A stretch of 64,000 bases of DNA from Parcubacteria group bacterium (GTDB lineage: Bacteria > Patescibacteriota > Minisyncoccia > SW-4-49-11): contig CALRBF010000001.1 of assembly GCA_943354045.1 (NCBI GenBank), forward strand, positions 136,026-200,025, in the 5' to 3' direction. A program made the position numbers and the translations under genes. Each line of letters opens with the position of its first letter. Positions within the stretch are counted from its first letter, which is position 1. The notes beneath the pieces were generated by a model that was not told the origin of the DNA, searched no databases, and was given only the letters and a program-made list of their open reading frames with translations. This document shows positions 6,479 through 45,691 of this stretch, one piece after another.

Positions 6479-8404
6479 TTACTTCTCTACGGTAAGCTGA
6501 TCTTGTATATCACTAACTTGATTACTACTAGGAGTATCTATGTTACCAGATAAATCAATTCCTGTAAACACATCTTTTCCCGTATAACTTACTTTACTCA
6601 ACAAACTTGGCTCTTGTCCTAATTGATTCGGGGTAGGATTAATTGCAATTTGGAATACCGCCCTATAAAGTGGTCTCAATAATCCCGTATTAGCAGGGAC
6701 ATTACCAATATCCCAAATTATTTCTTTAGTTCTATCATTATAACTTAATTTTCCAAATCCATTATTAGTACTTTGCCCTGTCCAACTAATATTAGCCGGT
6801 AATGTAGCCTTCAAGACAACCCCTGAGACATCATTAGTTAAATTTTGTATTTCCCAATTGACCGTAAATGTCGTAGTCTGAGCTAATTTTAATGGAATAG
6901 GTCCATTATTAATAATAGAACTTGTGGAACTTTTGTAATAGATATTTGATTTTGGAATAAGTCTCGTAGCTAATTTGACTTCACTCGCATTACCTTGAAT
7001 AATTTTATTTACTCCAAGAGTTGTAGGGACTTCATCACTTTCAAAGGTAGCTTGAGTTTTAATGACATAATTAATATCTTGAAAATCATCAATAGGAATA
7101 ATGCGCTTTACTGGTACTGAAAAATTTATTGTCCCCTCTTCATTTGGGGCAAATGTCTTAAGTTGAGGCAAAGCATTTGCTCGCCAAATAATTGTATTGC
7201 TTCCAGAGTCAAAATCAGCTCCTAAAGCTTTTAATTTAGTTATATCCAACAAATTACTATCGAGCTTTACTTTCAATAATCCCTCACCTATTCTCACTTG
7301 GGTATTATTTCGAATAGTAACAGTATAATCCAGAGTTTCTCCTGCGGATACTATTCCTGAGATAGGACTTACTTTTTGTACAATACTCACATAAGGAGAC
7401 CCTAATTTGGTTGAATTTTGACTATTCGCATATAGTGTAAATGCTCCTTGCTTATTTTCTCCAATTTGAGCTTTGAGAATTTTTATTTCTTGATCAAGAC
7501 CTCCAAGATTTCCTATAACCGTAACACTATAGGATCCTTTTGCTTTTAGGATTGGTATAGTAAAGATATTTTTCTCATTGCCCGTAGCGGTAATATTAGA
7601 TGATACAAAAGCAAAAGTATCAGGATATTCTAAACGCAATTCTAAATCTTTTAAATCATTAGATCCCTTATTATTTACCGTCACCACATAATTAACCGTG
7701 TCTCCACTTACACTTTCAAGAGGCGACTGTATATCAACAATGACGGGACTATCTGCTATGGTGGTCGCAAATTCAGTTTTAGTATCAAAACTAGAGTTTA
7801 AAATACTTGGCTTATAATTTAATATTGCTTTAATAGTTTGTATACTTCCCTGCTCTCCTATTAATCGTCCCTTTATGGTGATTTCCCCCTTGGAACGAGG
7901 AGCTAATTCTCCTAGAGAATATTCTCTTATCTCTGATTTTTCTTGTCCTAAAATATTCAAAGAAGAATCTGTTAGAGCTTTTGGTAATTCAACTGTAATC
8001 TTAGCATTTTCCAAAGCAACGAGATTATCATTACGATATGTGAGTGTATAACTCAAATCTTCTCCCGCACTAACTTGAGATGACCCCTTTACCTCTAACA
8101 CCACTCTCTTATCAGAGAATCTCTGCTGATTAAGAGAATATACAAAACCAGCTATTCCTATTGTAACAAAGACTGATAAGGCAATTAGACTCCATAAAGT
8201 AATTTTCTTCTTATATTTTTGAAAGAATGTTTGATCTGCTATCTCAAAAGAAGTTAATGATGGAGCCTTAGCTTCATCTCGCTTAGCATAAACACTGTAG
8301 GGAGTATGTTGAGTACGCTCTTGATCTAATATTTCACGATCTTCTTTTTGATAAATTTGTTTTTCTATATCTTTTAATGCCATATTATTTTTAACAATAT
8401 ACAA
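6479..8404 (-). CDS. Membrane-anchored surface protein with three DUF11/CARDB-like beta-repeat domains
   Basis: About 70-aa cytoplasmic N-terminus, one TM helix (LWSLIALSVFVTIGIAGFVYSL), then repeated segments of the pattern AGE.L.YT.T..N.G.......V.L ... (for example SGDTVNYVVTVNNKGSNDLKDLELRLEYPDTF), typical of the 'conserved repeat domain'. Confidence 0.5.
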   Translation of the reverse strand: MYIVKNNMALKDIEKQIYQKEDREILDQERTQHTPYSVYAKRDEAKAPSLTSFEIADQTFFQKYKKKITLWSLIALSVFVTIGIAGFVYSLNQQRFSDKRVVLEVKGSSQVSAGEDLSYTLTYRNDNLVALENAKITVELPKALTDSSLNILGQEKSEIREYSLGELAPRSKGEITIKGRLIGEQGSIQTIKAILNYKPSILNSSFDTKTEFATTIADSPVIVDIQSPLESVSGDTVNYVVTVNNKGSNDLKDLELRLEYPDTFAFVSSNITATGNEKNIFTIPILKAKGSYSVTVIGNLGGLDQEIKILKAQIGENKQGAFTLYANSQNSTKLGSPYVSIVQKVSPISGIVSAGETLDYTVTIRNNTQVRIGEGLLKVKLDSNLLDITKLKALGADFDSGSNTIIWRANALPQLKTFAPNEEGTINFSVPVKRIIPIDDFQDINYVIKTQATFESDEVPTTLGVNKIIQGNASEVKLATRLIPKSNIYYKSSTSSIINNGPIPLKLAQTTTFTVNWEIQNLTNDVSGVVLKATLPANISWTGQSTNNGFGKLSYNDRTKEIIWDIGNVPANTGLLRPLYRAVFQIAINPTPNQLGQEPSLLSKVSYTGKDVFTGIDLSGNIDTPSSNQVSDIQDQLTVEK

Positions 8405-9131: not shown

Positions 9132-10907
9132 TTATATTTCAATAATAACCGGTATAATCATTGGCCTTCTATGTGTAGTTCTGAATAAGAATAATCCCAA
9201 ATCTTCACGAATTGATTGTTGTATATATTCAATACTTTGATCCTCTCCATGAGACAATTTTTTCTCAATATGTTCTTGTACTCGAGATTGTATAGATTGT
9301 ATTAATTTGGTAGATGTTTGAATATGAACAAATCCTTTAGAGATAATTTCTGGTTCACGAATACATTTTCCTTGTTTAAAATCAACTAAAGCTACTATGG
9401 TCACAATACCATCTTGAGCCAAGGATTGCCTATCTCGAATTACAATTTCTTTTAAGTCACCTATTCCAAGCCCATCCACCATCATAGTGCTAGCATTGAC
9501 TTTTTCTGTAGTAACACGAGCCTCTCCTTTATATATCTCTATAATTCTTCCATTATCAGTAAGCAAGATATTATCCTTTTTCATACCCGCTTCAATCGCT
9601 AAATCACGATGAGATTTGAGTGAATAAAAATCTCCATAAATTGGTTGTAAATATTTGGGGCGAATTAAATCTAATAATTGTTTTAAATCATCACGTTGAG
9701 CATGTCCAGAAACATGTACTTCCATCATTTTATAATGAATAATATGTGCTCTTTGGCGAGCAATAGCATCTTTCACTTTTTGTACTGACTCCTCATTACC
9801 TGGTACAACCGAAGATGAAAATACAACGGTATCTCCCTTTTCAATATGAAAATTACGATGCTCTCGATTTGCCATACGAGTAAGAGCCGAGCGCTCATCT
9901 CCCTGAGCTCCTGTACAAATAATAGTAAGGTTTTCTGGAGGAATATTACGAGCCTCTTGTGCACTAATAACAGTTTGAGGAGAAAAATGTGCATATCCAA
10001 TTTCATGGAGAATTTGAACATTAGTTTTCATACTAAATCCCTCTATCACAACTTTACGATTATATTTTTCAGACAAATGAATCATTTGCTGTATACGATT
10101 CAGAGTACTAGAAAATGTAGTGACAATAATTTTACCCGTAGCATTTTCAAAAATATGATCAATATTATTTTGAATAGTCATCTCAGAAGTAACCCTACCA
10201 GAACGAGAAGCACTCGTACTATCAGATAATAATACTAATACTCCCTCATCACCAATTTTACGATACATTTCTAAATCAGCCGGCTCCTCTCCAACAGGAG
10301 TAGCATCTATTTTAAAATCACCAGTATGGAGTATAACTCCTTCTGGAGTTTCAATTTTAATCATAGTTGAATCAGGAATACTATGATTAATATGAAGGAA
10401 AGTTACGGTAAAAGCTCCAAATTTAAGCTTTTCATTTAATTTAGCTACTTTTCCATTTAATGGAGGTACGGTGGTAAATTCACTTTGACGTCTTTGCATC
10501 ATAGCAAGAGGCAAAGCAGGTGCATATATAGGAGGATTTCCAATCATAGACATAACCTGCGATACTCCTCCAATATGGTCCATATGACCATGAGTAATAA
10601 GAACAGCTCGAATATTATCCTCTTTTCCTTTAAGATAACTTGGATTAGGAATAATATAATCAACTCCTGGCTGATCTTCTTCTGGGAATTTCATCCCAAT
10701 ATCAATGACGAGAATATCTTTTCCATATTCTATTACCGTCATATTACGACCTCCAATTTCTTCTGATCCACCCAATGGAATGATTTTCAAAAGATTATCT
10801 TTAGTCTTAAATGGTTCTTTTGCATTAAGATACTCATTACTTTTATGACTTAAATCTGTCACAAAAGTTGTTCCTCTCTTAATTTCAGAGTGTTGATACG
10901 ATTTCAT
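9132..10907 (-). CDS. rnj: Ribonuclease J (canonical paralog)
   Basis: Metallo-beta-lactamase motif II is intact (LITHGHMDHIGG). The beta-CASP and C-terminal domain lengths fit RNase J (591 aa). Confidence 0.85.
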   Translation of the reverse strand: MKSYQHSEIKRGTTFVTDLSHKSNEYLNAKEPFKTKDNLLKIIPLGGSEEIGGRNMTVIEYGKDILVIDIGMKFPEEDQPGVDYIIPNPSYLKGKEDNIRAVLITHGHMDHIGGVSQVMSMIGNPPIYAPALPLAMMQRRQSEFTTVPPLNGKVAKLNEKLKFGAFTVTFLHINHSIPDSTMIKIETPEGVILHTGDFKIDATPVGEEPADLEMYRKIGDEGVLVLLSDSTSASRSGRVTSEMTIQNNIDHIFENATGKIIVTTFSSTLNRIQQMIHLSEKYNRKVVIEGFSMKTNVQILHEIGYAHFSPQTVISAQEARNIPPENLTIICTGAQGDERSALTRMANREHRNFHIEKGDTVVFSSSVVPGNEESVQKVKDAIARQRAHIIHYKMMEVHVSGHAQRDDLKQLLDLIRPKYLQPIYGDFYSLKSHRDLAIEAGMKKDNILLTDNGRIIEIYKGEARVTTEKVNASTMMVDGLGIGDLKEIVIRDRQSLAQDGIVTIVALVDFKQGKCIREPEIISKGFVHIQTSTKLIQSIQSRVQEHIEKKLSHGEDQSIEYIQQSIREDLGLFLFRTTHRRPMIIPVIIEI

Positions 10908-10908
10908 A

Positions 10909-12675
10909 TTAAATATTCATTATTATTGGTAAAATCATTGGTCTTCTTTCTGTCTTAGTAAGTAATAAGCGACCAATATTTTCTCTTACTTCATCTTGTA
11001 TATAAGCAATATTTACTTCATCAGATTGTTTCAAAAGAGCCAATACAATTAATCTTGTTTGTTCTTTTACTTCATTAAATAGTTTCTCTGAAGATTCATT
11101 ATCTACAAAGCCCTTAGACACAACTACAATATCTCCCAATATTTCGCGAGAATCAGCATTAAGCAATGTTACAATATGTAATATACCCTCTTCTGACATT
11201 GTTTGTCTATCATGTATAACTACATTAGTTAAATCACCTACGCCTAGACCATCTACTATTACATTGGAAGTTGGAACTTTTTCCGGAGTGATACGCCTTT
11301 GTTTATAATCAAATAGAATGACTTTTCCATTCATACCTATTATTACATTACGATCTGGATACCCTCCTTTAATCGCAATATCTCCCGTAGACCTCAATAA
11401 ATGATGAGAACCACTAATAGGCACATAATATTTAGGGCGAATTGCTTTTAATACAGCCAAACTATCCTCATATCTTGCATATGCAGCAAATCGTGTATCA
11501 AGTGGCTGATAATATTCCACAAAAGCTCCTAATTTTGCAAAATTATCATTTACTCGAGCAGCTGAGCGAGCATTACCTGGAATTAATGCTCCAGGATACA
11601 TCACAATATCTCCCTCTTTAATTGAGAAAACACTATGTTCATTATTAGCTAGTCTCATCAAATGAGGAATATCATCCCCATGAGAACCAGATATTAATAC
11701 TACTAACTGCTCTCTTGGAGTATCCCCAAGTAAACTAGGTCCCACTATAGTACCTGATTTAATTTGAATAAACCCCTTTTTGCGACATGTATTAAACGTA
11801 TTAAGTAAACTTTTTCCTTCAATAAATAAATGCTTATTATGAGCTTCTACTGCATTGACAATTTGTTGCATACGCCCAATCATAGATGGAAATGTAGATA
11901 CAAATACCGTACCCGTAGTACGAGCTATAACCGAGTCAATATGCTCAGCAATGGAAGCCTCCTTAGGAGTAAACCCTTGAGATTCTGTAGCAGAACTTCC
12001 AGATAAAAGAGCAAATGTATCAGCTCCCGCTAATTCCTTTATATAATCGAGAAATTCATTTTTTTCTCCTGATTCACTATCCAATTTATAGCTAGAGAGA
12101 TAAAATACCTTTCCTTGCATAGTATACACACATAATCCTATTGAACCCATCACATTAAATGGAGTTGGAAAAACATTCACTTTAAAGGATCCTACTCGTA
12201 TAGAATTATAAGGTTTGATAATATGTTTTTTGTATTTTACCCCTTGAGAATAAAAATCCTGACGAGATTCCAATATTGCAAATAAAGCCTCTGTTGCATA
12301 AATATGCAGATTAGGAAATAAATGTAAAAGATATGGTACAGCCCCAATATGATCGGGATGTGGGGACGTTAATACTACTCCCTTTATTTTGGAGCTATTA
12401 TCCATCAAATACTGCGTATTGGGGATAATATAATCAATTCCTGGTTGATTAGCACCAGGCATTTGAAGCCCCATATCGACAATCAGAATATCATTTTCTT
12501 GCTCAAATATATACATATTCTTACCAACACCATCAAGCCCCCCCAAAGGAATGATTTTGAGAGCTTGGCGTGAAGTTTCAGGAATAGTTCTTTTTTGAGC
12601 AAAACTTTTTCCTTGAGATCGAGAACGGTTATTCTTATTCTGTGAATTATTATTGTATGGTCGTTTTGATTGCAT
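10909..12675 (-). CDS. Ribonuclease J paralog with degenerate motif II and Asn/Lys-rich N-terminal extension
   Basis: Same architecture as the upstream gene, but motif II reads LTSPHPDHIG (S-P-H-P-D-H, not H-x-H-x-D-H). About 45 aa of basic low-complexity N-terminus (MQSKRPYNNNSQNKNNRSRSQGKS...). Confidence 0.75.
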   Translation of the reverse strand: MQSKRPYNNNSQNKNNRSRSQGKSFAQKRTIPETSRQALKIIPLGGLDGVGKNMYIFEQENDILIVDMGLQMPGANQPGIDYIIPNTQYLMDNSSKIKGVVLTSPHPDHIGAVPYLLHLFPNLHIYATEALFAILESRQDFYSQGVKYKKHIIKPYNSIRVGSFKVNVFPTPFNVMGSIGLCVYTMQGKVFYLSSYKLDSESGEKNEFLDYIKELAGADTFALLSGSSATESQGFTPKEASIAEHIDSVIARTTGTVFVSTFPSMIGRMQQIVNAVEAHNKHLFIEGKSLLNTFNTCRKKGFIQIKSGTIVGPSLLGDTPREQLVVLISGSHGDDIPHLMRLANNEHSVFSIKEGDIVMYPGALIPGNARSAARVNDNFAKLGAFVEYYQPLDTRFAAYARYEDSLAVLKAIRPKYYVPISGSHHLLRSTGDIAIKGGYPDRNVIIGMNGKVILFDYKQRRITPEKVPTSNVIVDGLGVGDLTNVVIHDRQTMSEEGILHIVTLLNADSREILGDIVVVSKGFVDNESSEKLFNEVKEQTRLIVLALLKQSDEVNIAYIQDEVRENIGRLLLTKTERRPMILPIIMNI

Positions 12676-12838: not shown

Positions 12839-13120
12839 TTATTTTGACTCGCTAGCTTTGAATCGTGTTACAGGGATTTTGGTAGCTTCAATGATATTCT
12901 GCTTAATTAAAAGGTTATGTACTGTTTGTGAAGGTTGAGCTCCAACTGAAATCCAATATTTAATTCTCTCTGCATTAAGTACTTGATCTTTATTTCCTGG
13001 ATTATATACACCAAGAGATTCAATAAACTTTCCTTTTACAGGACGGTCTTTTTCTGCAACAACCACCTTATAAATAGGAGTGTTTTTCTTCCCTACACGG
13101 GACAATCGAATTCGTAACAT
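12839..13120 (-). CDS. rpsP: 30S ribosomal protein S16
   Basis: MLRIRLSRVGKKNTPIYKVVVAEKDRPVKGKFIESLGVYNP is the classic S16 N-terminus. Confidence 0.9.
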   Translation of the reverse strand: MLRIRLSRVGKKNTPIYKVVVAEKDRPVKGKFIESLGVYNPGNKDQVLNAERIKYWISVGAQPSQTVHNLLIKQNIIEATKIPVTRFKASESK

Positions 13121-13192: not shown

Positions 13193-14839
13193 CTATTGCG
13201 TAATACTTTGGAGCACTGTATTAGACAATCGTGTTGGCCAATAGGTTATACGTTTTATGCTGCCGTTTATTCGCTCCTGTCCACCAAAATCGTAATGTCC
13301 AACAGTTGCCATATTGACAGTTGGTAGTACTCCACTTGAATCTGTTTCTAATGCTACGCCCACTCTTTTTAGTGCAAAATCATTCGCCGCATAACCAAGT
13401 GCTACCTTGTTACCGCCGGGTGAACCAAAGATTGCTTGGACAGCGGATACCGAGACAACCGCCGTTTGTGCTGCGGCGTTTGAGAATTGAATCCGCTCTC
13501 CTGCGTCTGTGGATGCCCGAACGGTGATTGTTGCCCCGCCTCCAAGGACATTAGCTGTTTCTCCATAGAAAGTACCCCCCAACTGATTATACCAAGAGTT
13601 AAAATTAGTACCTGCTATTATTGTTGCACTATCTGCAAATCTTTGTACAGTAGCAGTCGTTGTAGGTATATAGGATGTAGCAAAAGCCCCTTGTTCTAAT
13701 TGAGCCCCCCATGCATAATAGCTATTCGTTGATGTAGAAGCTCCCCAAGTATCAAACCAAACTGACCCATTAGATTGTGTTAATACCGAATTCAAAGTAG
13801 CAGTTATGCTACAACGATACCAACCATTTCCTACATTTGTTATTGTTGCATTTGCAGCTGTTGCTGTCCCATTAACCGTAACTCCTCCAGATAATTGTCC
13901 CGTTGCAAGATTCAATAGCTGATTGGCTCCATTACCACCGGCAGCATCATCTATTCTTATTAATATTACAGATTGTGTATTAGCCTTCAGATAAACAGAA
14001 AACGTATAAGTCCCTATTGTAGATGTTGTAGCAGTTTTAGCCCAAACTTTAACATTACTAGTACTATTAGAACCAGTAACTATATCAGCATTTATACCTC
14101 CATCTGGAGAAGCAATTGTATTGGCTATTATAGCAACATTATTGAGGCTGGTACTAGCAGCTAAATCAGCTGATTGTAATAATAAATTTGTCCTCTGCTC
14201 CTCCACTAATAGCCCTAAACTCTCCCTGGTCACAGGATTATGATTAAACCTTGGTGCATTTACTGCTGCCGTCTTAATAAGTCCATCTGAGTCTACATAT
14301 GTTGCCGTAGGAGTAGTTTCTAAAACATTTCTTATAAAACTTATTGGATTAGTACCATTGACTGCATTGGTTAATTGTTTATCTCTTGCAAAGTTTAAAT
14401 CTAGGGTTGGTGCTACTGTTGTTCCTCCTGCTGCTGTTGCCAATATATTACTATTATCATATCCAGTACTTACTCCATTTACTGTCTTTGTCACTAAGTA
14501 TTGCCCTCTATCTGGTATGGGTATTCCTGCTATATAGTCACTTAATGCACTACTTAAATCTATTCCATTACTACATCCTGCTACTACACATAATCCTACT
14601 GTACTTCCTACTCCTACTCCTTGTAATGCTGGCGGATATACTCCCCTTTCTATAATATATTGTTGTATTGCCTTTGCTATTGCATTTTGATCTGATTTCC
14701 TCTTTGCTTCCCTTGCTGCTTCTATTTGTTTATTGGGGTTTATTGCAATTAATACTATTGCTGCTAATATACCTATTGCGGCAATCACCAATAATATCTC
14801 TAATAATGTAAATCCTTTCTTTTGTTTTCCTCCCCTCAT
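13193..14839 (-). CDS. Giant type IV pilin-like protein (prepilin N-terminus fused to large C-terminal domain), paralog 1
   Basis: Class III leader and N-terminal hydrophobic helix (MRGGKQKKG|FTLLEILLVIAAIGILAAIVLIAI). 548 aa. Shares conserved blocks with the 570-aa paralog at 18908..20620. Confidence 0.75.
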   Translation of the reverse strand: MRGGKQKKGFTLLEILLVIAAIGILAAIVLIAINPNKQIEAAREAKRKSDQNAIAKAIQQYIIERGVYPPALQGVGVGSTVGLCVVAGCSNGIDLSSALSDYIAGIPIPDRGQYLVTKTVNGVSTGYDNSNILATAAGGTTVAPTLDLNFARDKQLTNAVNGTNPISFIRNVLETTPTATYVDSDGLIKTAAVNAPRFNHNPVTRESLGLLVEEQRTNLLLQSADLAASTSLNNVAIIANTIASPDGGINADIVTGSNSTSNVKVWAKTATTSTIGTYTFSVYLKANTQSVILIRIDDAAGGNGANQLLNLATGQLSGGVTVNGTATAANATITNVGNGWYRCSITATLNSVLTQSNGSVWFDTWGASTSTNSYYAWGAQLEQGAFATSYIPTTTATVQRFADSATIIAGTNFNSWYNQLGGTFYGETANVLGGGATITVRASTDAGERIQFSNAAAQTAVVSVSAVQAIFGSPGGNKVALGYAANDFALKRVGVALETDSSGVLPTVNMATVGHYDFGGQERINGSIKRITYWPTRLSNTVLQSITQ

Positions 14840-17995: not shown

Positions 17996-18196
17996 ATGTC
18001 TCGACGATGTGAATTACCAATTTGTTCAAAAAAAGCGATGGTTGTAACCAAGCGTAAACTTTTACGTGGTAATTATAATCCTACTAGCAAGCATACTCAA
18101 AAAGTAAATGTACAACCCTATACTCTTCCTGATGGAACCAAAGTAAAAGCTTGTACTACTTGTATTCGAACTATTAATAAAAGCTTAGCTGCTTAA
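17996..18196 (+). CDS. rpmB: 50S ribosomal protein L28
   Basis: MSRRCELPICSKKAMVVTKRKLLRGNYNP... matches the L28 N-terminal MSR.C... pattern, 66 aa. Confidence 0.75.
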   Translation: MSRRCELPICSKKAMVVTKRKLLRGNYNPTSKHTQKVNVQPYTLPDGTKVKACTTCIRTINKSLAA

Positions 18197-18204
18197 ATCT
18201 AAAC

Positions 18205-18240
18205 AAAAAAGAGTATCGTTATAGAGGATACTCTTTTTTG
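18205..18240. terminator. Bidirectional rho-independent terminator between rpmB (+) and the DUF218 gene (-)
   Basis: AAACAAAAAA-GAGTATC-gttatagag-GATACTC-TTTTTTG. A perfect 7-bp stem with an A-run upstream and a T-run downstream. Confidence 0.6.
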
Positions 18241-18241
18241 T

Positions 18242-18877
18242 TTAGATAATTTCTTTTTCTCCAAGGAATTTAGGTTGGCGATTGATAATATGAACATCGG
18301 TCCAAGCCTGGGTACGAGCTAAAATTTCTCGTACCTGTGTGCGAATACTAGATTTGAGAGACACTCCTTCTGCCACAAATCCTTCCGCATCAATACCCAG
18401 GGTTCTGGCAATATATACCGCTCTTTTGATATGAAATTCCTGAGAAATGATAATAATATCATTTTGCCCAAATATATCTCGAGAGCGTACTACCGAATCA
18501 AGAGTACGAAATCCTGCATAGTCGAGAACTATATCATCTTTTGGAATGCCTCGCTCTAATAATGCTGTCTGCATTGCCTTAGGCTCATTATAAGATACCT
18601 CTGCATTATCTCCACTTACTAAAATCTTTTTAATTTTACCTTTTTGATATAATTCTACTGCTGCCTCAATACGATTTACAAAATAGGGATTATCCCCTCC
18701 TCCAATCATACGCTCACTAGTACCTAGCACCAAACCAACCTTATGATCTTTTACATCATCTGCTTTATTTTTAATAAATGGTATAGGATCATGGGAAATT
18801 GAAGCATTGGTATATGCAATAAAAACAATAGATCCGATAATTATAATACCTATACTTCTTCGAATAAATACAATCAT
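18242..18877 (-). CDS. SanA/YdcF/ElyC (DUF218) family protein
   Basis: N-terminal membrane anchor plus a DUF218-like core (VLGTS ... IIIISQEFHIKRA). Confidence 0.5.
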   Translation of the reverse strand: MIVFIRRSIGIIIIGSIVFIAYTNASISHDPIPFIKNKADDVKDHKVGLVLGTSERMIGGGDNPYFVNRIEAAVELYQKGKIKKILVSGDNAEVSYNEPKAMQTALLERGIPKDDIVLDYAGFRTLDSVVRSRDIFGQNDIIIISQEFHIKRAVYIARTLGIDAEGFVAEGVSLKSSIRTQVREILARTQAWTDVHIINRQPKFLGEKEII

Positions 18878-18907: not shown

Positions 18908-20620
18908 TTATTTAGTGATATTAGTCAGAGTTGTATTGGATAATCGCGTCGGCCAGTAGGTTAATCGGGAGATTATACCATTAAGAGCATATGGTGGAGC
19001 TCCTCCAGTACCACTTCCAATATCTAATCTATCATGTGTAGCCATACCTGTGGCAGCTGTATTAGTTGTTATAGTTCCTATATTTCCATTAATACCTACA
19101 ATTAAATCTGAGCTATTAATTGCATATACAGATTTATATATGTTATTGCCTACTAAATAATTAAATGTCATCCCTGGAAATAATAATATTGGATTAGGAT
19201 TACGTGCAACACCCAAAAAAGATGTCGCATTTATAGCTCCTCTTAAAGCATAATTATTTTGATTTATAGCGGTATTATATACTTGGAATATATGTGGGGT
19301 ATTACTTGGAATTGCAGCAGTAGCAGTATAAATAGGAGAAAATTGACTAAACCAGGTTCCTGCTGCCTGATTATACCAACCTCCTCCTGAAGTTGTGGTA
19401 AAGTTTGTCCCCGTGATGCTCGCCACATCCGCGCTGCGGGTTACGGCGGCGGTGGTGGTAGGAATATATGAAGTTGGGAAAGCTCCTTGTTCTAGTTGAG
19501 CTCCCCAAATATAAACTTGAGAACCATTATAATTAGTACCATCATAATTACCTATACGAAATTGTGGTCTAAATGTAGTTTGTCCTGTAGGGATGGTATA
19601 AGTTGCAGAGACTCTATACCAATTATTACTATATGGTGTTATGGATGAAGCTGTAATATTAGTTCCTGTATTAATTGTACCTGATACTAAATTAATACTC
19701 ATAGAATAATTTAATCCCCAACCCTCTTGTACAATAGTGGCATTTTGCTGATTAATATATTTAACAAAAACTGAATATGTATATACTTGCCCTGTAGAAG
19801 CAGCTATCGTTTTTGCAACATTTGGATATAGCCCCGAAGCAGACATTAAAGTTCCTGTATTTGTACCATCCGGAGCTAAAGATTGGTTGGCAGTAGCAGA
19901 CATTGAGCCAGATTTTTCCCAATATACATTACTAATATCTGTACTATACAGCCATAAATTAGTTCTCTGCTCCTCAATCAATAGTCCTTGACTTGATTTT
20001 GTAATAGGATCATGAGTAAATCTTGGTGCATTTACTGTTGCGGTCTTAATAAGTCTATCTGAGTCTACATATGTTGCCGTAGGTGTACTTTCTACAATAT
20101 TACCTGGATTAGTTACTCTTGCAAAATTTATGGGATTAGTCCCATCAACTGCATTTACTAATTGTTTATCTCGGGCAAAGTTTAAATCTAATTTTGGAGC
20201 TGTAGTCCCAGCTGTTGCCCATATAGTACTACTATCATAGGCTGGTATAATCCCTGTCGCTGTTTTGGTTATAGTATATTGCCCCGTTTGAGGCAGAGGA
20301 ATAGCTGCTATATAAGGCGCTAAGTCAGTAGTCAAATCTATACCCCCTGTACAAGGGCTCGTCACACATAATCCTACCGTCCCTCCTGTTATCACAGATT
20401 GTAAGGCTGGTGGATATTTACCCCGATTATTGACTACATACTGTTCTATTGCCTTTGCAATAGCATCCATATCAGCTTTTCTTTTAACAGCTCTCCCGGC
20501 CTCTAATTGCTTATTAGGGTTAAGTACTACTAAACCTATTGCTGAAAATACACCAATAGCTGTGATTACTAATAATATTTCTATTAGGGTGAATCCTTTT
20601 TTCTTTTTATATATTATCAT
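18908..20620 (-). CDS. Giant type IV pilin-like protein, paralog 2
   Basis: Prepilin leader/helix MIIYKKKKG|FTLIEILLVITAIGVFSAIGLVVL. 570 aa. Conserved blocks shared with 13193..14839: LDLNFARDKQL.NAV.GTNPI.F, TPTATYVDSD.LIKTA.VNAPRF.H.P.T......GLL.EEQRTNL, IWGAQLEQGAF.TSYIPTTTA, R.TYWPTRLSNT.L. The blocks are separated by divergent segments. Confidence 0.75.
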   Translation of the reverse strand: MIIYKKKKGFTLIEILLVITAIGVFSAIGLVVLNPNKQLEAGRAVKRKADMDAIAKAIEQYVVNNRGKYPPALQSVITGGTVGLCVTSPCTGGIDLTTDLAPYIAAIPLPQTGQYTITKTATGIIPAYDSSTIWATAGTTAPKLDLNFARDKQLVNAVDGTNPINFARVTNPGNIVESTPTATYVDSDRLIKTATVNAPRFTHDPITKSSQGLLIEEQRTNLWLYSTDISNVYWEKSGSMSATANQSLAPDGTNTGTLMSASGLYPNVAKTIAASTGQVYTYSVFVKYINQQNATIVQEGWGLNYSMSINLVSGTINTGTNITASSITPYSNNWYRVSATYTIPTGQTTFRPQFRIGNYDGTNYNGSQVYIWGAQLEQGAFPTSYIPTTTAAVTRSADVASITGTNFTTTSGGGWYNQAAGTWFSQFSPIYTATAAIPSNTPHIFQVYNTAINQNNYALRGAINATSFLGVARNPNPILLFPGMTFNYLVGNNIYKSVYAINSSDLIVGINGNIGTITTNTAATGMATHDRLDIGSGTGGAPPYALNGIISRLTYWPTRLSNTTLTNITK

Positions 20621-24463: not shown

Positions 24464-24490
24464 CATAGAAAAGAGAGAAGGTTTAAACTT
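24464..24490. terminator. Hairpin terminator-like element 15-40 nt upstream of the histidine kinase start codon
   Basis: AGAGAAG-gtttaaa-CTTCTCT flanked by an A-run and a T-run (symmetrical). It lies inside the 450-bp RR-HK spacer. Confidence 0.4.
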
Positions 24491-24622
24491 CTCTTTTTTC
24501 TATTTACTAAAAAGGTTGTCTCCACTAAGGAGATAAAATATCTGTTATCAGATAGTAAATTATGATTTAATTGTTATCGTGTAAATAAGGTGCAAAGTCT
24601 TTTACTTGTATTGGTATGAGGA

Positions 24623-38816: not shown

Positions 38817-38890
38817 GGATGTGTAGCTCAGCTGGTTAGAGCAGTCGTCTTATAAGCGACAGGTCGGTGGTTCAAGTCCACCCATATCCA
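38817..38890 (+). tRNA. tRNA-Ile with genomically encoded anticodon UAU (reads AUA)
   Basis: GGATGTG-TA-GCTC-AGCTGGTTA-GAGC-A-GTCGT-CTTATAA-GCGAC-AGGTC-GGTGG-TTCAAGT-CCACC-CATATCC-A. The D arm and T arm are near-identical to bacterial tRNA-Ile (AGCTGGTTAGAGC; AGGTCGGTGGTTCAAGTCCAC). The anticodon loop is CTTATAA. Confidence 0.75.
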
Positions 38891-38909
38891 CATCAATAGA
38901 TAACCCATT

Positions 38910-39254: not shown

Positions 39255-40199
39255 TTACCTCTTTGTCGTTTGTTGAGTTACAATTTCATAGGCCATAATA
39301 GCGGTGGCGGTGGCTACATTCAGAGATTGAATCTTACCATACATTGGGATATATCCGAGCATATCACAACTAGAGGCAATACTTGGTCTGAGTCCCTTAC
39401 CTTCGCTTCCCATTACGAGTACAGTTGGTAAGTCATTGAAGTCATATTGATAAAATGGTGGAGTTTCTGGGTTACAATCACTACCCAATATCCAAAAGCC
39501 TAATTGCTTCAAGGTATTAAGTGCGGTATTCATATTGCCTACTTGTACCAGAGGCACATATTTGTCTGCCCCAGAGGCAACTTTTGACCCTATAGGGGAT
39601 ATAATCCCCCCTCTATGCTTAGGTAGTAATACGCCAAGAGCTCCCATAGTCTCAGCCACGCGGATAATTGCTCCAATATTATGTTGATCGGTAATTTCAT
39701 CCAGAGCAATAACTAAACCTTTAGAAGTATCCCCTACTTTCTCTTTGATACTAGCAGCCCATTCTTCTAAACTGAGTAAAGGCTCAGCTGTTACCACGGC
39801 AATAATACCTTGATGAATATAATCCCCTTCTTCAGCAATTTCTTTCTCTAATAATCCGGTTATTTTTTGAATAGGAACATATTGAATGAGGGCAAGAGAC
39901 TCTTTAGCAAGTTCCAAAATTTGCTCCAAACGCTTATCTCGAACCTGATTCTCTCGAGTAATATAAATTTTCTGAACTCGCTTAGGATCTTGTTTTAATA
40001 TCTCCAGCACGGAATTCTTTCCATATACATATTGACTCCCATCTTTATCTTTTAGCTTACCCTTAGGAGCTTTACTCAATTGATTGGCGGGATTACGACG
40101 ATGTTTGGTAGTAGGCAAAGCAGACTTTGGGACATCTTCACGCTTTTCGCGCTTATTACGGCGAATAGCTTTTGACTTCTTTTTGGTAGGATATGGCAT
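39255..40199 (-). CDS. rlmB: SpoU/TrmH-family 23S rRNA 2'-O-methyltransferase (RlmB-like) with Lys/Arg-rich N-terminal extension
   Basis: A C-terminal SPOUT methylase core (GNVGAIIR-like HNIGAIIRVAETMG; LVMGSEGKGL). About 60 aa of basic low-complexity N-terminus. Confidence 0.7.
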   Translation of the reverse strand: MPYPTKKKSKAIRRNKREKREDVPKSALPTTKHRRNPANQLSKAPKGKLKDKDGSQYVYGKNSVLEILKQDPKRVQKIYITRENQVRDKRLEQILELAKESLALIQYVPIQKITGLLEKEIAEEGDYIHQGIIAVVTAEPLLSLEEWAASIKEKVGDTSKGLVIALDEITDQHNIGAIIRVAETMGALGVLLPKHRGGIISPIGSKVASGADKYVPLVQVGNMNTALNTLKQLGFWILGSDCNPETPPFYQYDFNDLPTVLVMGSEGKGLRPSIASSCDMLGYIPMYGKIQSLNVATATAIMAYEIVTQQTTKR

Positions 40200-40261
40200 A
40201 AATAAAATATAAATAATTAAGGCTATACTAGCATAAAATATAGGTATTGTATAGGTGTTGA

Positions 40262-40545
40262 GAGTATCTTAGTCGCTTGTATTTTGTCCTCCTTAGGAGG
40301 AGCTTTAAGTCCCTCCCATACTTTAGTTTGCGAGTGGCCGGAGGTGGATAATTCGTAAACTATGTTATAAAATAGAAATGAGATTTGATCGCTATCCACC
40401 CCCGTCTTGTAGACTTCCCCCTCCCTGCCTACCGAAGGCAGGCGAAGGGAGGACAAGAGTAAAGATTTTTTTGTTACGACAACACAGGCGACTGAAAGGT
40501 CGCCCCTACGAAGTAAAAGTAGGTTTTATGTAGTAGGGAATAAAT
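40262..40545. repeat. GC-rich hairpin-dense repeat element, copy A (candidate structured ncRNA / MITE-like)
   Basis: About 50% GC against a roughly 33% background. It shares an exact 19-mer CTTTAAGTCCCTCCCATAC and a ~30-nt block CACAGGCGACTGAAAGGTCGCCCCTACG with 44950..45245, where the second block is inverted. It also has multiple GGAGG/CCTCC stems, for example CCTCC-tta-GGAGG and CCCTCCCTGCC-taccgaa-GGCAGGcgaaGGGAGG. Confidence 0.5.
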
Positions 40546-42318
40546 CTAGGTATATATAACTCTAGGATTATACTGTTCCAAACCATTTTCTTTGTCTAAG
40601 ACAGTAGCAATTTCTTCACTCAATTCTCTTAATCGTGCCTGTTTAGTATCAAAATCATCGGGTTTTTGATATTGCTCTATATATTCTTTTAATTTATTAA
40701 TTGCTTTAATAATAGAATCCTTATCTGTAAGTTCTGTTTGCTCTAGTTTACCTCTTATATATTCACTTTGACTATATCTTTTATTTAATTCAACTACTCT
40801 AGATGTGTTAATAGAAAATTTAGAATTTATTGTATGATATTGACTAATATATTGGTCTCGCTCAGTAATCCTTAATTTTATATTTTCTAAAATTGGGCTT
40901 AATCTAGATATAGCATCTTGATCTCTAGAGGGATTCCATCTTGATTTAGATTTATTCTGTTCTAGATAATCCTCTATTTCTCTCAGTTCCCCTACTTTCA
41001 TTTTTTTGCTTTCTGGTATTCTAAAATTACGAAGTGCTCTAATATTACTTATAGCTGATCCTAATCTATCTAATTCAGTATTTAGAGATGTACTACTATC
41101 TTCAACTTTATTTGATAATTCCTCTAAGGTTTTTTGATAATCTTCTTGTAATTCAAAACCTTTACCTGTTAATCTAACTTCACAAGTGACTTTTTCTAAT
41201 TCTTCTGATAATAAATTTAGATTTATATTATCAGAAGACCTATCTCTTTCTAAATGAGAAGCTTCTTGATATGATGGATCTCCTTTAATACCCCCTACTT
41301 CTTGTTCTAAAGTATTTTTACTATCTCTAAGTAAATTTAATTCCCTCTCTTTAGCGCCCCTAGCAAAATATTGAATAGATTGTTCAGTAGATTCTGAGCC
41401 GTTATACACCTTTGAATCTACTTTTAGCTTTTTAATTTGCTCCATTCCATCAACATACCCGTATAATTCAAAAATTTCTTCCAAATCTCTATCTGATATA
41501 TAGAATTCTGTTTCACCCCTTACTTCTCGTGTGACCTTAGTTTCAGATAATCTTTTTTCTAATTCTCCTTTAGCTCGCTCTAATAAAATAGGTTTATCAT
41601 TCTCTTCTGCTCCAGTTTCTGCATAACTTGCCTGAGATTCTGTTAATTGCGTATTCAATTCTTCTAGCCTAGTTTGTATAGCTGTCTGTACTTGATTTTC
41701 AGTTTCTTGATCAAAAGTTTGTAAATTTTGTGCTACCTGTAATAAGGAATCTTCATTAGCCTTAATTGCTGCACCAAATTGTGGTTTACTTCGTGCTTTC
41801 TCAGTAAATTCTTCGATTGACTCTGTACTTTTAGGATTAGTTGCTTTTAACTTATTATAAGCTTCCTTAATCATCTGTAAAAGTTGTAGTTGTATTCCTG
41901 ACAATTTTGTTTTTGTATTTTCCAAACTAATTCTAGACTCTTGTCTAGATTGTAAAATTTCATTTTGTATTGCGTCAAACGCTTCTCCCTGCCTACTTTC
42001 TAATTGCTGAATTTGAGATTTAATGTCCTGTATTTCTAAGCCTTGTTCTGATAATCCATCTTCATTTACTTCAAATGATGGTTTTGATTCTTTTATTCCT
42101 TGATCGACTAATTCATCCAAATCAAAATTTAAGGAATCTGGATCAAGTTCTGGCTCTCCCTCAATAGCAGGAGACTCTTTATCTTCTATAGTTTCTAGAC
42201 CTGCTTGTAATTTAGCTAATTCTTCAGGGGATAATTCTGTAGATGCAGCATTACCAGAAGAACCTGCACCACCCTCTTGTTCTGGAGCATATACTATTGA
42301 ATTCTCAAATAATCTCAT
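40546..42318 (-). CDS. Large acidic coiled-coil protein (hypothetical), encoded directly downstream of ftsA
   Basis: 590 aa, E/Q/L-rich with heptad character throughout. No TM segment, no tubulin (GGGTGSG) motif and no P-loop. It lies 9 bp downstream of ftsA on the same strand. Confidence 0.55.
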   Translation of the reverse strand: MRLFENSIVYAPEQEGGAGSSGNAASTELSPEELAKLQAGLETIEDKESPAIEGEPELDPDSLNFDLDELVDQGIKESKPSFEVNEDGLSEQGLEIQDIKSQIQQLESRQGEAFDAIQNEILQSRQESRISLENTKTKLSGIQLQLLQMIKEAYNKLKATNPKSTESIEEFTEKARSKPQFGAAIKANEDSLLQVAQNLQTFDQETENQVQTAIQTRLEELNTQLTESQASYAETGAEENDKPILLERAKGELEKRLSETKVTREVRGETEFYISDRDLEEIFELYGYVDGMEQIKKLKVDSKVYNGSESTEQSIQYFARGAKERELNLLRDSKNTLEQEVGGIKGDPSYQEASHLERDRSSDNINLNLLSEELEKVTCEVRLTGKGFELQEDYQKTLEELSNKVEDSSTSLNTELDRLGSAISNIRALRNFRIPESKKMKVGELREIEDYLEQNKSKSRWNPSRDQDAISRLSPILENIKLRITERDQYISQYHTINSKFSINTSRVVELNKRYSQSEYIRGKLEQTELTDKDSIIKAINKLKEYIEQYQKPDDFDTKQARLRELSEEIATVLDKENGLEQYNPRVIYT

Positions 42319-44550: not shown

Positions 44551-44820
44551 TTATTTGATACTTGCTTTAATTTTCAACTTATACTTATTAGGAAGTCTTT
44601 CTGTTGAACTAACTTTTCCCATTTTAACTAATTTATCTTTTTCAGTTAAAAATTGAACTTTTTTAATAGCAGCTTGTCTTTGCTTGGTCTTTGACTTATT
44701 TTTAGTCAAAAATCGTGAGGCTCGGGCTTCAGACAATACTTCGCTTTTCTGAATACGTCGAGTGAAGCGTCGAATCATAGATTCTACACTTTCTCTTTCT
44801 CTCTTTCTTACTTCTACCAT
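44551..44820 (-). CDS. rpsU: 30S ribosomal protein S21
   Basis: MVEVRKRERESVESMIRRFTRRIQKSEVLSEARASRFLTKNKSKTKQRQ matches S21. I chose the start at the internal ATG, preceded by AAGGAGG at -9. The track ORF starts 10 codons earlier. Confidence 0.8.
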   Translation of the reverse strand: MVEVRKRERESVESMIRRFTRRIQKSEVLSEARASRFLTKNKSKTKQRQAAIKKVQFLTEKDKLVKMGKVSSTERLPNKYKLKIKASIK

Positions 44821-44949
44821 ATAATATAACCTCCTTTCATGATTTTTCATTCGCTAAAAATAAGTCCTTAGCAAGACTTTGTTACAATTCTATCACAAAA
44901 TCAAAAGATTAGCAATAGTATGTATAAGATGAGGAAATCAATAGATAAA

Positions 44950-45245
44950 TTATGCTTTCGTAGCGGAGGCTTTAAGTCCCTCCCATACATTGTTTGGGAG
45001 GGGGTTTATCCCTCCACTATTGTTCTTATGTAGGGGAGACCTATCAGTCGCCTGTGATATATTTGAGCTTGAGCTTTTATCTCCCTCCAAAGGGAGGACA
45101 GAAATACAAGTTGCAGAATACTTCCACCCCACCATCTAAAAGACGGTACCCCTCAATTTATCTCCCGTAGGGAGAGAGGGGTAATTTAGAGTAACTAGAA
45201 AGAAGCCACCTGTTAGGGTGACTTAAGAGGTTTTTCCATCAAGTA
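44950..45245. repeat. GC-rich hairpin-dense repeat element, copy B (rearranged relative to copy A)
   Basis: Contains the same 19-mer CTTTAAGTCCCTCCCATAC (44970..44988) and the inverted copy of the GGCGAC-hairpin block (45025..45056). Serial CCCTCC/GGGAGG hairpins: GGGAGGGggtttatCCCTCC, TCCCTCCaaaGGGAGGA, TACCCCTC..TCTCCCgtaGGGAGA..GAGGGGTA. It lies immediately upstream of rpsU. Confidence 0.5.
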
Positions 45246-45569
45246 CTAAATGGGTCTTTGGGATTGTGGATTTAATATGTCTGACACTAGATTCCATAGC
45301 GAATCTGTTAGCTCAATGGTATGAATTGTATTATCAAATCTATATTGTCCTAAATCCTCCTCATGTTTAATGTTGAACCCAAACTCAATTTTTGTTCTTA
45401 ATATTTCAATATCTGTACTATGGTCTGCGGTGAGAAAATCTATTAAGCCTTCCCTAAATCCTACTATAGTTTTTATTTGGGATAGAATACTATCATAACA
45501 TCTAATCCAGTTCTTTCCCGATAATTGCCTTGCTTGTCCTGTCGTGTTTGACATTGGCTTATAAACCAC
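45246..45569 (-). CDS. Hypothetical 107-aa protein (orphan)
   Basis: An ORF only. No recognisable motifs. It sits between repeat copy B and the HisRS-like gene. Confidence 0.3.
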   Translation of the reverse strand: MVYKPMSNTTGQARQLSGKNWIRCYDSILSQIKTIVGFREGLIDFLTADHSTDIEILRTKIEFGFNIKHEEDLGQYRFDNTIHTIELTDSLWNLVSDILNPQSQRPI

Positions 45570-45691
45570 TTAATGTGGTGTGATAGTGCAATTTATATAT
45601 ACCATAAAAATGACATTTTGTCTATCTTAGATAGGAAATTGGAGTATAGTTTATAATTAATTATTATTTGTCTTTGTATTGATTTACCAAT

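Follow-up and report, generated by a model that had tools for sequence, protein, structure and literature searches.

The two GC-rich hairpin blocks of the window (the whole stretch of DNA analysed, 64 kb), here termed copies A and B, probably belong, in our opinion, to a family of modular, GC-rich palindromic repeats that lie scattered between the genes of AT-rich Paceibacteria (CPR) and are gained, lost and reshuffled; on the same reading, copy B is not a regulator of rpsU. Sequence comparison with related genomes, on which this conclusion is built, demonstrates family membership, modularity, presence or absence between strains, and gain, loss and inversion of modules between close strains. 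The initial annotation of this DNA had described A and B as related GC-rich hairpin copies whose common blocks are differently arranged, and to this extent it is confirmed.

The window is AT-rich (33.7% GC) and its genes are tightly packed, the intervals 40200-40545 and 44851-45245 being two of its larger intergenic gaps. Pfam matches reproduce the minus-strand gene order proposed earlier: rlmB, a 590-aa protein without a Pfam match, ftsA, ybeY, yqeY and rpsU; 5′ of this string lie a 107-aa ORF without a family match and then hisS. At the position of the 107-aa ORF, a 102-aa ORF is called in L012 and L019 (loci of other contigs are cited by such numbers), where the DNA is collinear with the window; no such ORF is present in L013, L014, L017 or the P0005 contig. 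The 590-aa gene that follows ftsA (40546-42318; orthologues in L012-L017) has no NCBIfam match either, and among close relatives the product ranges widely in length (575, 590, 591, 674, 678, 726 and 799 aa).

A and B are linked first by the 19-mer CTTTAAGTCCCTCCCATAC, of which the window has exactly two occurrences, one at 40303 and one at 44970; both are on the + strand, in agreement with the common orientation that had been reported. Two matches were obtained in 0 of 100 shuffles. The peptide VWEGLKA, correctly noted in the two spurious minus-strand ORFs 40223-40456 and 44950-45135, is the translation of this 19-mer. The possibility that these ORFs encode real small proteins was rejected, as the translated 19-mer stands within otherwise unrelated frames. 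The second link is a common block of 25-40 nt in opposite orientation. The longest inverted repeat of the window (40483-40522 / 45017-45056) is 40 nt long and 80% complementary, and in its core GTAGGGGAGACCTATCAGTCGCCTG of B and the reverse complement of CAGGCGACTGAAAGGTCGCCCCTAC of A are identical at 23 of 25 positions, counted by eye. This block had been taken for an internal inversion between the copies. It is better described as a terminal inverted repeat arm, and appears inverted because A and B preserve opposite arms of one inverted pair: in A the 3′ arm is perfect and the 5′ arm degraded, while in B it is the 5′ arm that is good and the 3′ arm that is degraded.

Table 1. Positions of copies A and B, their modules, and neighbouring features in the window
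Feature	Position	Strand	Remarks
Ribosomal protein S16	12839-13120		no copy upstream
Ribosomal protein L9	16544-16996		no copy upstream
Small L28-like ORF	near 17996-18196		no copy upstream
rlmB	39255-40199	-	Pfam
Copy A, composite unit	40249..40511	+	between the 590-aa gene and rlmB (conserved site)
M1 in copy A	40303..40337	+	same site without M1 in L012, L015, L016
3′-type terminal arm of A	40485..40509	+	CAGGCGACTGAAAGGTCGCCCCTAC
rpsU (S21, 89 aa)	44551..44820	-	start from conserved ATGGTAGAAG
Promoter-like site for rpsU	44915..44887	-	TTGCTA-17-(TG)TAGAAT; between B and rpsU
Copy B, composite palindromic repeat unit	44951..45232	+	blastn against L012, sequence reading, fold
h1 hairpin module	44960..45017	+	GTAGCGGAGG ... 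GGGTTTATCCCTCCAC; M1 nested inside
M1 in copy B (~34 nt)	44969..45001	+	bears the 19-mer: tail CTTTAAGT + hairpin CCCTCCC-loop-GGGAGG
5′-type terminal arm of B	45030..45054	+	GTAG + palindrome (GTAGGGGAGACCTATCAGTCGCCTG); the inverted block of the initial annotation
M3	45080..45106	+	hairpin TCTCCCTCC-AAA-GGGAGGA, then tail CAGAAATA
Nested hairpin	45148..45182	+	ACCCCTC..TCTCCC-GTA-GGGAGA..GAGGGGT; older resident part, present in L012 too
Degenerate outer (3′-type) arm of B	45203..45224	-	terminator-like on the minus strand; just past the stop of the 107-aa ORF
107-aa accessory ORF	45246..45569	-	without family match; belongs to the variable insert between hisS and rpsU

The serial CCCTCC/GGGAGG hairpins described for B were borne out by folding of both strands (-100.6 kcal/mol, z = -3.65 for the + strand; -100.0 kcal/mol, z = -3.99 for the - strand). 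The blastn breakpoints against the sister strain L012 divide B into a left part, 44951-45165, which is specific to the window's strain, and a right part, 45166-45232, which the two strains have in common. M3 of B has a 96% match at L010 327-351. Copy A is made up of a 5′-arm remnant, h3, M1, a long hairpin whose loop is AT-rich, h7 and a 3′ arm that is well preserved.

The initial annotation had named a lack of other copies as a refutation of its view; further ones do exist, in other contigs. The exact 19-mer was found once each in the genomes of two other GTDB species, one of them labelled Candidatus Paceibacteria, and a slightly relaxed pattern led to six more metagenome loci. An HMM of the M1 core recovered 11 instances in all, distributed over the window and eight loci of other contigs, and blastn with element seeds revealed units without M1 in L002, L006, L008, L009, L011, L012, L013, L015, L016 and L017. 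All units found sit between ORFs or called genes. The genes near them are unrelated housekeeping genes (cofD, bipA, groEL, ndk, pth, ftsW, htrA, an ABC ATPase and others), and the orientation of the units relative to these neighbours is, by reading, variable. Their density is one to five per 8-16 kb in L002, L008, L011, L012 and L015; the 64-kb window holds only A and B.

The units are assembled from recurrent modules (the arm, h1, M1, M3 and a GGTGGATAA hairpin), the stems of nearly all of which are CCYCC/GGRGG. The best-preserved units carry a 25-nt arm at each end, in inverted orientation, consisting of GTAG and a palindrome (GTAGGGGCGACCTTTCAGTCGCCTG ... CAGGCGACTGAAAGGTCGCCCCTAC; the arm reads GTAGGGGCGACC-TTTCA-GTCGCCTG). 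Near the middle of the unit stands a long hairpin (GGAGGTGGATAA - AT-rich loop - TTATCCACCYCC), and M3-type hairpins (CCTCC-loop-GGAGGACAnAAATA) are seen in both orientations. In L008, arms at 6754-6778 (+) and 7056-7080 (-) bound a 395-nt unit, the reverse complement of which is, by eye, collinear with the unit of L001. As read from the letters, the whole unit is a large imperfect palindrome built of small ones.

Alignment of filled and empty sites places the 19-mer in a discrete, optional hairpin module of ~34 nt, M1. In three independent comparisons (B with L008-6696, B with the L012 array, and L001 with the reverse complement of L008-6696), M1 appears as a clean insert of 34-35 nt in otherwise collinear sequence, preceded by GGA/GAGG and with GGGAGG as its last bases. 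The h1 module occurs without M1 at L008 6720-6785 and in the L012 array. In L007, h1 together with M1 is 98% identical to that of B over 62 nt, at an unrelated locus. Site A lacks M1 in the sister assemblies L012, L015 and L016 and has a small GGCACGAAGTGCC hairpin instead; L015 and L016 were sampled from strains with 98% YqeY identity.

The initial annotation had also considered that the inverted block of B might arise from an assembly artefact. This is not so, because the sequence of window 44821-45270 is base-for-base identical in four other assemblies (L019, L021, L026 and L028). The 346-nt intergenic gap at site A is likewise identical in five further assemblies, and M1 is found at site A in four more contigs; M1 is thus there in all nine assemblies with an RlmB identical to that of the window. 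Four independent Logan contigs (L033, L035, L036 and L037) stop exactly at the 3′ arm of A (...GGTCGCCCCTACGAA). Such breaks are expected at a repeat and suggest that those genomes or communities contain the arm more than once.

The comparison with Rfam proposed in the initial annotation identified no family that matches the element: at the gathering threshold of Rfam 15 the window yields four tRNAs only, and in E-value mode the element overlaps in A, B, L001 and L002 are far below gathering and of chance type (e.g., miRNA hairpin models). No transposase or recombinase was found within the 64-kb window or beside the elements at other loci, nor was a related IS with the same ends found in the window or in the loci examined. 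The unit ends show no clear target-site duplication; there is only GAGG microhomology around M1.

Several known elements were considered and rejected. RNase P RNA was suggested by the order arm - hairpin - 'GAGGGCTTTAAGTCC' in L001 and L002, which resembles P1/P2-P3-P4 (GAGGAAAGUCC); there was, however, no match at E <= 10 and, by eye, no complementary 3′ strand of P4, several copies occur per contig, and M1 is optional. For tmRNA, SRP and 6S RNA there was no ARAGORN or Rfam match. A phage origin was discarded, the 17-mer matches in viral contigs L003-L005 lying in coding DNA and being due to chance; with more specific patterns for M1 and the arm, 0 matches in viral contigs were obtained. We consider the 19-mer far too rare for a DNA uptake sequence (2 in 64 kb; one per genome in two GTDB species), and neither tandem identical repeats nor an attC-like core were recognised that would indicate integron attC or TIGR arrays. 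A crude count of GC hairpins inside versus outside stop-to-stop ORFs proved uninformative, because long spurious ORFs arise from the GC-rich elements themselves.

Turnover is apparent on comparison of close strains. The gap between hisS and rpsU (44851-45691 in the window; compared also in L012, L015 and L019-L028) differs in content from strain to strain: among strains with identical S21 it holds the 102/107-aa ORF, one or two RDD genes, a NYN-domain gene, or type I restriction hsdR with DUF4268. Since its contents vary among relatives, the gap is an insertion hotspot, to whose changing contents B belongs. The DNA of L012 follows that of the window collinearly (93-96% identity), with three differences, namely, an array of ~500 nt after tRNA-Ile, an RDD gene at the position of the window's left part of B, and internal changes in A. 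The array between tRNA-Ile and mazG is composed of the same modules and is ~500 nt long in L012 (reverse complement, 762-1329), L015 (14301-14800) and L016 (6628-7127), as opposed to 16 nt in the window (38892-38907). Direct translocation of the tRNA-adjacent array of L012 to site B was considered and rejected, as the similarity, over ~115 nt, is at the level of modules only. A loop flip was also seen, GGGTTTATCCC of B corresponding to GGGATAAACCC of L012. The tRNA-Ile itself (38817-38891) has a UAU anticodon according to ARAGORN, which is unusual; in most bacteria, AUA is read by a lysidine-modified CAU tRNA.

Site A behaves differently. A unit is present there in six genomes, with YqeY identity as low as 80%, and the flanks of the site are conserved, namely, the region upstream of rlmB and, at the opposite end, the 3′ arm just past the stop of the preceding gene; the interiors of L013 and L017 are not alignable with that of the window. 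That the two copies bracket an operon, as had been emphasised, is coincidental: site A is old and stably occupied, and site B is a strain-variable insertion hotspot. The gap 3′ of cofD, seen in two genomes (L002 6753-8000 and L006 737-1830), is a second case of a persistently occupied site with changing content; both the contents and their orientation differ.

The continued occupancy of site A could reflect selection for a function there, e.g., as a 3′-end structure, and this leads to the alternative that fares best, although we consider it unlikely as an account of the family. According to it, the hairpins would be useful to the host as terminators, RNase barriers or insulators between co-directional genes, with A ending the transcript of the ftsA operon and the outer arm of B that of the 107-aa ORF; such a role would be compatible with a selfish origin. 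Most elements do separate co-directional genes, tail to head (ftsW-htrA, groEL-ndk, and the gaps after pth and, in two genomes, cofD), the 3′ arm at site A is kept right after the stop of the upstream gene in six genomes with a variable interior, and a terminator-like site coincides with the outer arm of B on the minus strand (45224..45203). In copy A, however, no terminator-like site was found, units of 250-400 nt far exceed the size that termination needs, and their orientation relative to genes is not fixed. Moreover, ordinary AT-flanked terminators are in use, and in L001 and L008 they separate genes from elements. The window has such intrinsic terminators at 18197-18247 and 24468-24499, one of which is a perfect 21-nt inverted repeat, bidirectional in principle, just past the L28-like ORF (~17996-18196); given their presence, termination in this genome is not dependent on the GC-rich elements.

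That the elements are a multi-copy family of structured ncRNAs with transcription of their own, encoded by the M1-sense strand (the + strand in the window, antisense to the operon), appears improbable to us. The predicted structure is strong (z = -5.6 for L001 and -3.7 for B), and 19-20 nt are perfectly conserved across different genomes. In M1-bearing units the M1-sense strand is also the more stable one, by 7-23 kcal/mol, and has more G-U pairs, irrespective of the orientation of the flanking genes (copy B is an exception with regard to stability). This predicted asymmetry would fit an RNA or single-strand-specific role as well. Nevertheless, both strands fold near-equally in B and in units without M1. 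The consensus fold of seven M1 cores has the M1 hairpin as its sole stem, with 0 covarying pairs, and the interiors of orthologous units are not conserved even among close relatives. Modules are shuffled, inverted, inserted and deleted; no common promoter or terminator was seen among the units, and Rfam offers no match.

The model preferred in the initial annotation made B the 5′ leader or attenuator of the rpsU-yqeY-ybeY-ftsA operon, acting through SD-sequestering or sponge hairpins, and A the matching terminator. Its appeal is that B is the nearest large structured block 5′ of rpsU, that A follows at the 3′ end of this string of genes, and that the stems are SD-like and anti-SD-like. The region upstream of rpsU was aligned for the window and six relatives with 78-99% YqeY identity. 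From the conserved SD and start ATGGTAGAAG, the start of rpsU, common to these relatives, is set at 44820 (89 aa) and not at 44850. The promoter-like motif, the leader, the SD GAAAGGAGG and the start are conserved throughout this alignment. The motif is also kept in ten strain-level loci obtained by a look-up with the exact 89-aa S21, a protein present in 77 collection blocks. Similarity in the alignment ends ~115 nt 5′ of the rpsU ATG, before B begins. B had been placed directly upstream of rpsU; it is indeed upstream, but begins ~130 nt from the start, with the conserved promoter-like site in between. A leader would be expected between promoter and start codon and conserved in position, whereas here the promoter-like site is downstream of B.

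The distribution of B among strains points the same way. Only four of the ten loci with identical S21 have B (L019, L021, L026 and L028), and the other six have different inserts instead: in three, hsdR lies upstream, once with DUF4268 also, without any B-like sequence, and in three, one or two RDD genes replace the left part of B, as in the sister strain L012. In more distant relatives, L013, L014 and L017 among them, the hisS-rpsU gap is only 73-127 nt and does not contain B. The same modules adjoin unrelated genes, and copies in front of other ribosomal-protein operons, which the initial annotation had proposed looking for, are absent from the window (S16, L9 and the L28-like ORF). Because these comparative data contradict it, the leader model is scarcely credible. 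On the same comparisons, B lies outside the conserved promoter-like motif and leader of rpsU and is evidently dispensable; it is thus judged not to be a regulatory leader and not to regulate rpsU.

The control region of rpsU itself (44821-44940, minus strand) reads TTGCTA-17-TGnTAGAAT, a short leader, GAAAGGAGG and ATG. A small hairpin can be recognised in the leader by eye (AAGTCTTGCTAAGGACTT in the window, ACCTTGTAAAAGGT in L013), with its structure kept and its sequence altered; this predicted hairpin could be an autoregulatory site for S21.

Of the three roles that had been suggested for the elements, that of recombination substrates is the one that fits the data. We would regard the members of the repeat family as non-autonomous, largely selfish or neutral DNA repeats without a function as RNA, which would be gained, lost and reshuffled module by module. 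Copy-paste, gene conversion or template switching via hairpins at the common GGAGG/CCTCC microhomologies might be the route; alternatively, an HUH/Y1-type (RAYT/IS200-type) enzyme might act in trans on single-stranded hairpins. The elements would settle in tolerated intergenic DNA, outside promoters and leaders, and some arms may have been co-opted as 3′-end hairpins of the upstream gene, which is plausible and not required. It should be noted that the copy number in the window is modest (two in 64 kb), and that the exact 19-mer is single-copy in both GTDB species genomes that bear it. Both M1-bearing segments of the window's strain are absent from sister strains that are ~93-96% identical. 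A more specific possibility, which we put forward tentatively and lean against, is a lineage-specific REPIN-like system still active in ultra-small CPR genomes; its smallest mover would be the ~34-nt M1, landing after GAGG in other palindromic modules by means of an unrecognised single-strand hairpin enzyme or purely by template switching.

Elements of this kind are well known (REP/BIME/REPIN, BOX, mitochondrial GC clusters); for their occurrence in Patescibacteria we found no report, our literature search having covered REP-, REPIN- and MITE-like repeats and related ncRNAs in that phylum. A GTAG head is typical of REPs. The family shares with REP, REPIN and BIME elements the form of extragenic GC-rich imperfect palindromes, with arms of GTAG and a palindrome and with variable orientation relative to genes, and with BIMEs the mosaic combination of motifs. 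BOX elements of Streptococcus pneumoniae (boxA-boxB(n)-boxC) are modular, structured, non-coding intergenic repeats with a variable number of sub-modules. The present family, too, consists of structured, non-coding intergenic repeats built from a few sub-modules; it differs from BOX in phylum, has no sequence relationship to it, and its modules also invert, whereas the order and orientation of BOX modules are fixed. Like MITEs (e.g., Correia), the elements are non-coding, measure 100-400 bp, have terminal inverted repeats and are present or absent by strain. Unlike MITEs, they have no TSD beyond the 4-nt microhomology and no parent IS was found, and their content is swapped by module rather than moved as a whole element.

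REPINs consist of two inverted REPs around a hairpin-forming spacer of variable sequence, and an 89-bp element has been described (PMC3337134). The unit of L008 likewise has inverted arms around a variable hairpin-forming spacer, a layout matching that of REP doublets or BIMEs, and A and B each have one good and one degenerate arm. In contrast to the 89-bp REPIN (PMC3337134), the spacer of the family is 200-330 nt long and comprises at least six recurrent hairpin modules. The family further departs from REPs and REPINs in its seemingly modest copy number and in that no RAYT gene was found in the window or in the loci examined, and its host is a streamlined CPR genome and not one of the Proteobacteria. 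M1, a ~34-nt GC-rich hairpin with filled and empty versions, recalls the GC clusters of yeast mitochondria, which PMC4478555 describes as strain-variable GC-rich palindromes of ~30-50 bp inserting into AT-rich intergenic DNA. It differs from these clusters in residing in a bacterium and not an organelle, in having no sequence similarity to them, and in lying inside GC-rich modules, after GAGG, rather than in AT spacers.

These results remove a false lead, as there is no rpsU leader or attenuator at copy B. They also indicate that the streamlined, gene-dense genomes of Patescibacteria do carry modular palindromic repeats that turn over between strains. The repeats mark hotspots of intergenic gene gain and loss, such as the hisS-rpsU gap and the site after tRNA-Ile, and break assemblies. 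If truly mobile, they would serve in uncultured CPR as a tractable marker for strain history and for recent recombination, and would raise the question of what mobilises DNA hairpins without a nearby transposase.

Paralogous genes are also seen in the window. Two paralogous large proteins of 548 and 570 aa (13193-14839 and 18908-20620) have an N-terminal prepilin-type methylation motif, and the DNA encoding them contains stretches 71-82% identical, ~5.78 kb apart (repeat families D1-D3 and D6). Two RNase J paralogues of 591 and 588 aa lie in tandem at 9132-10907 and 10909-12675.
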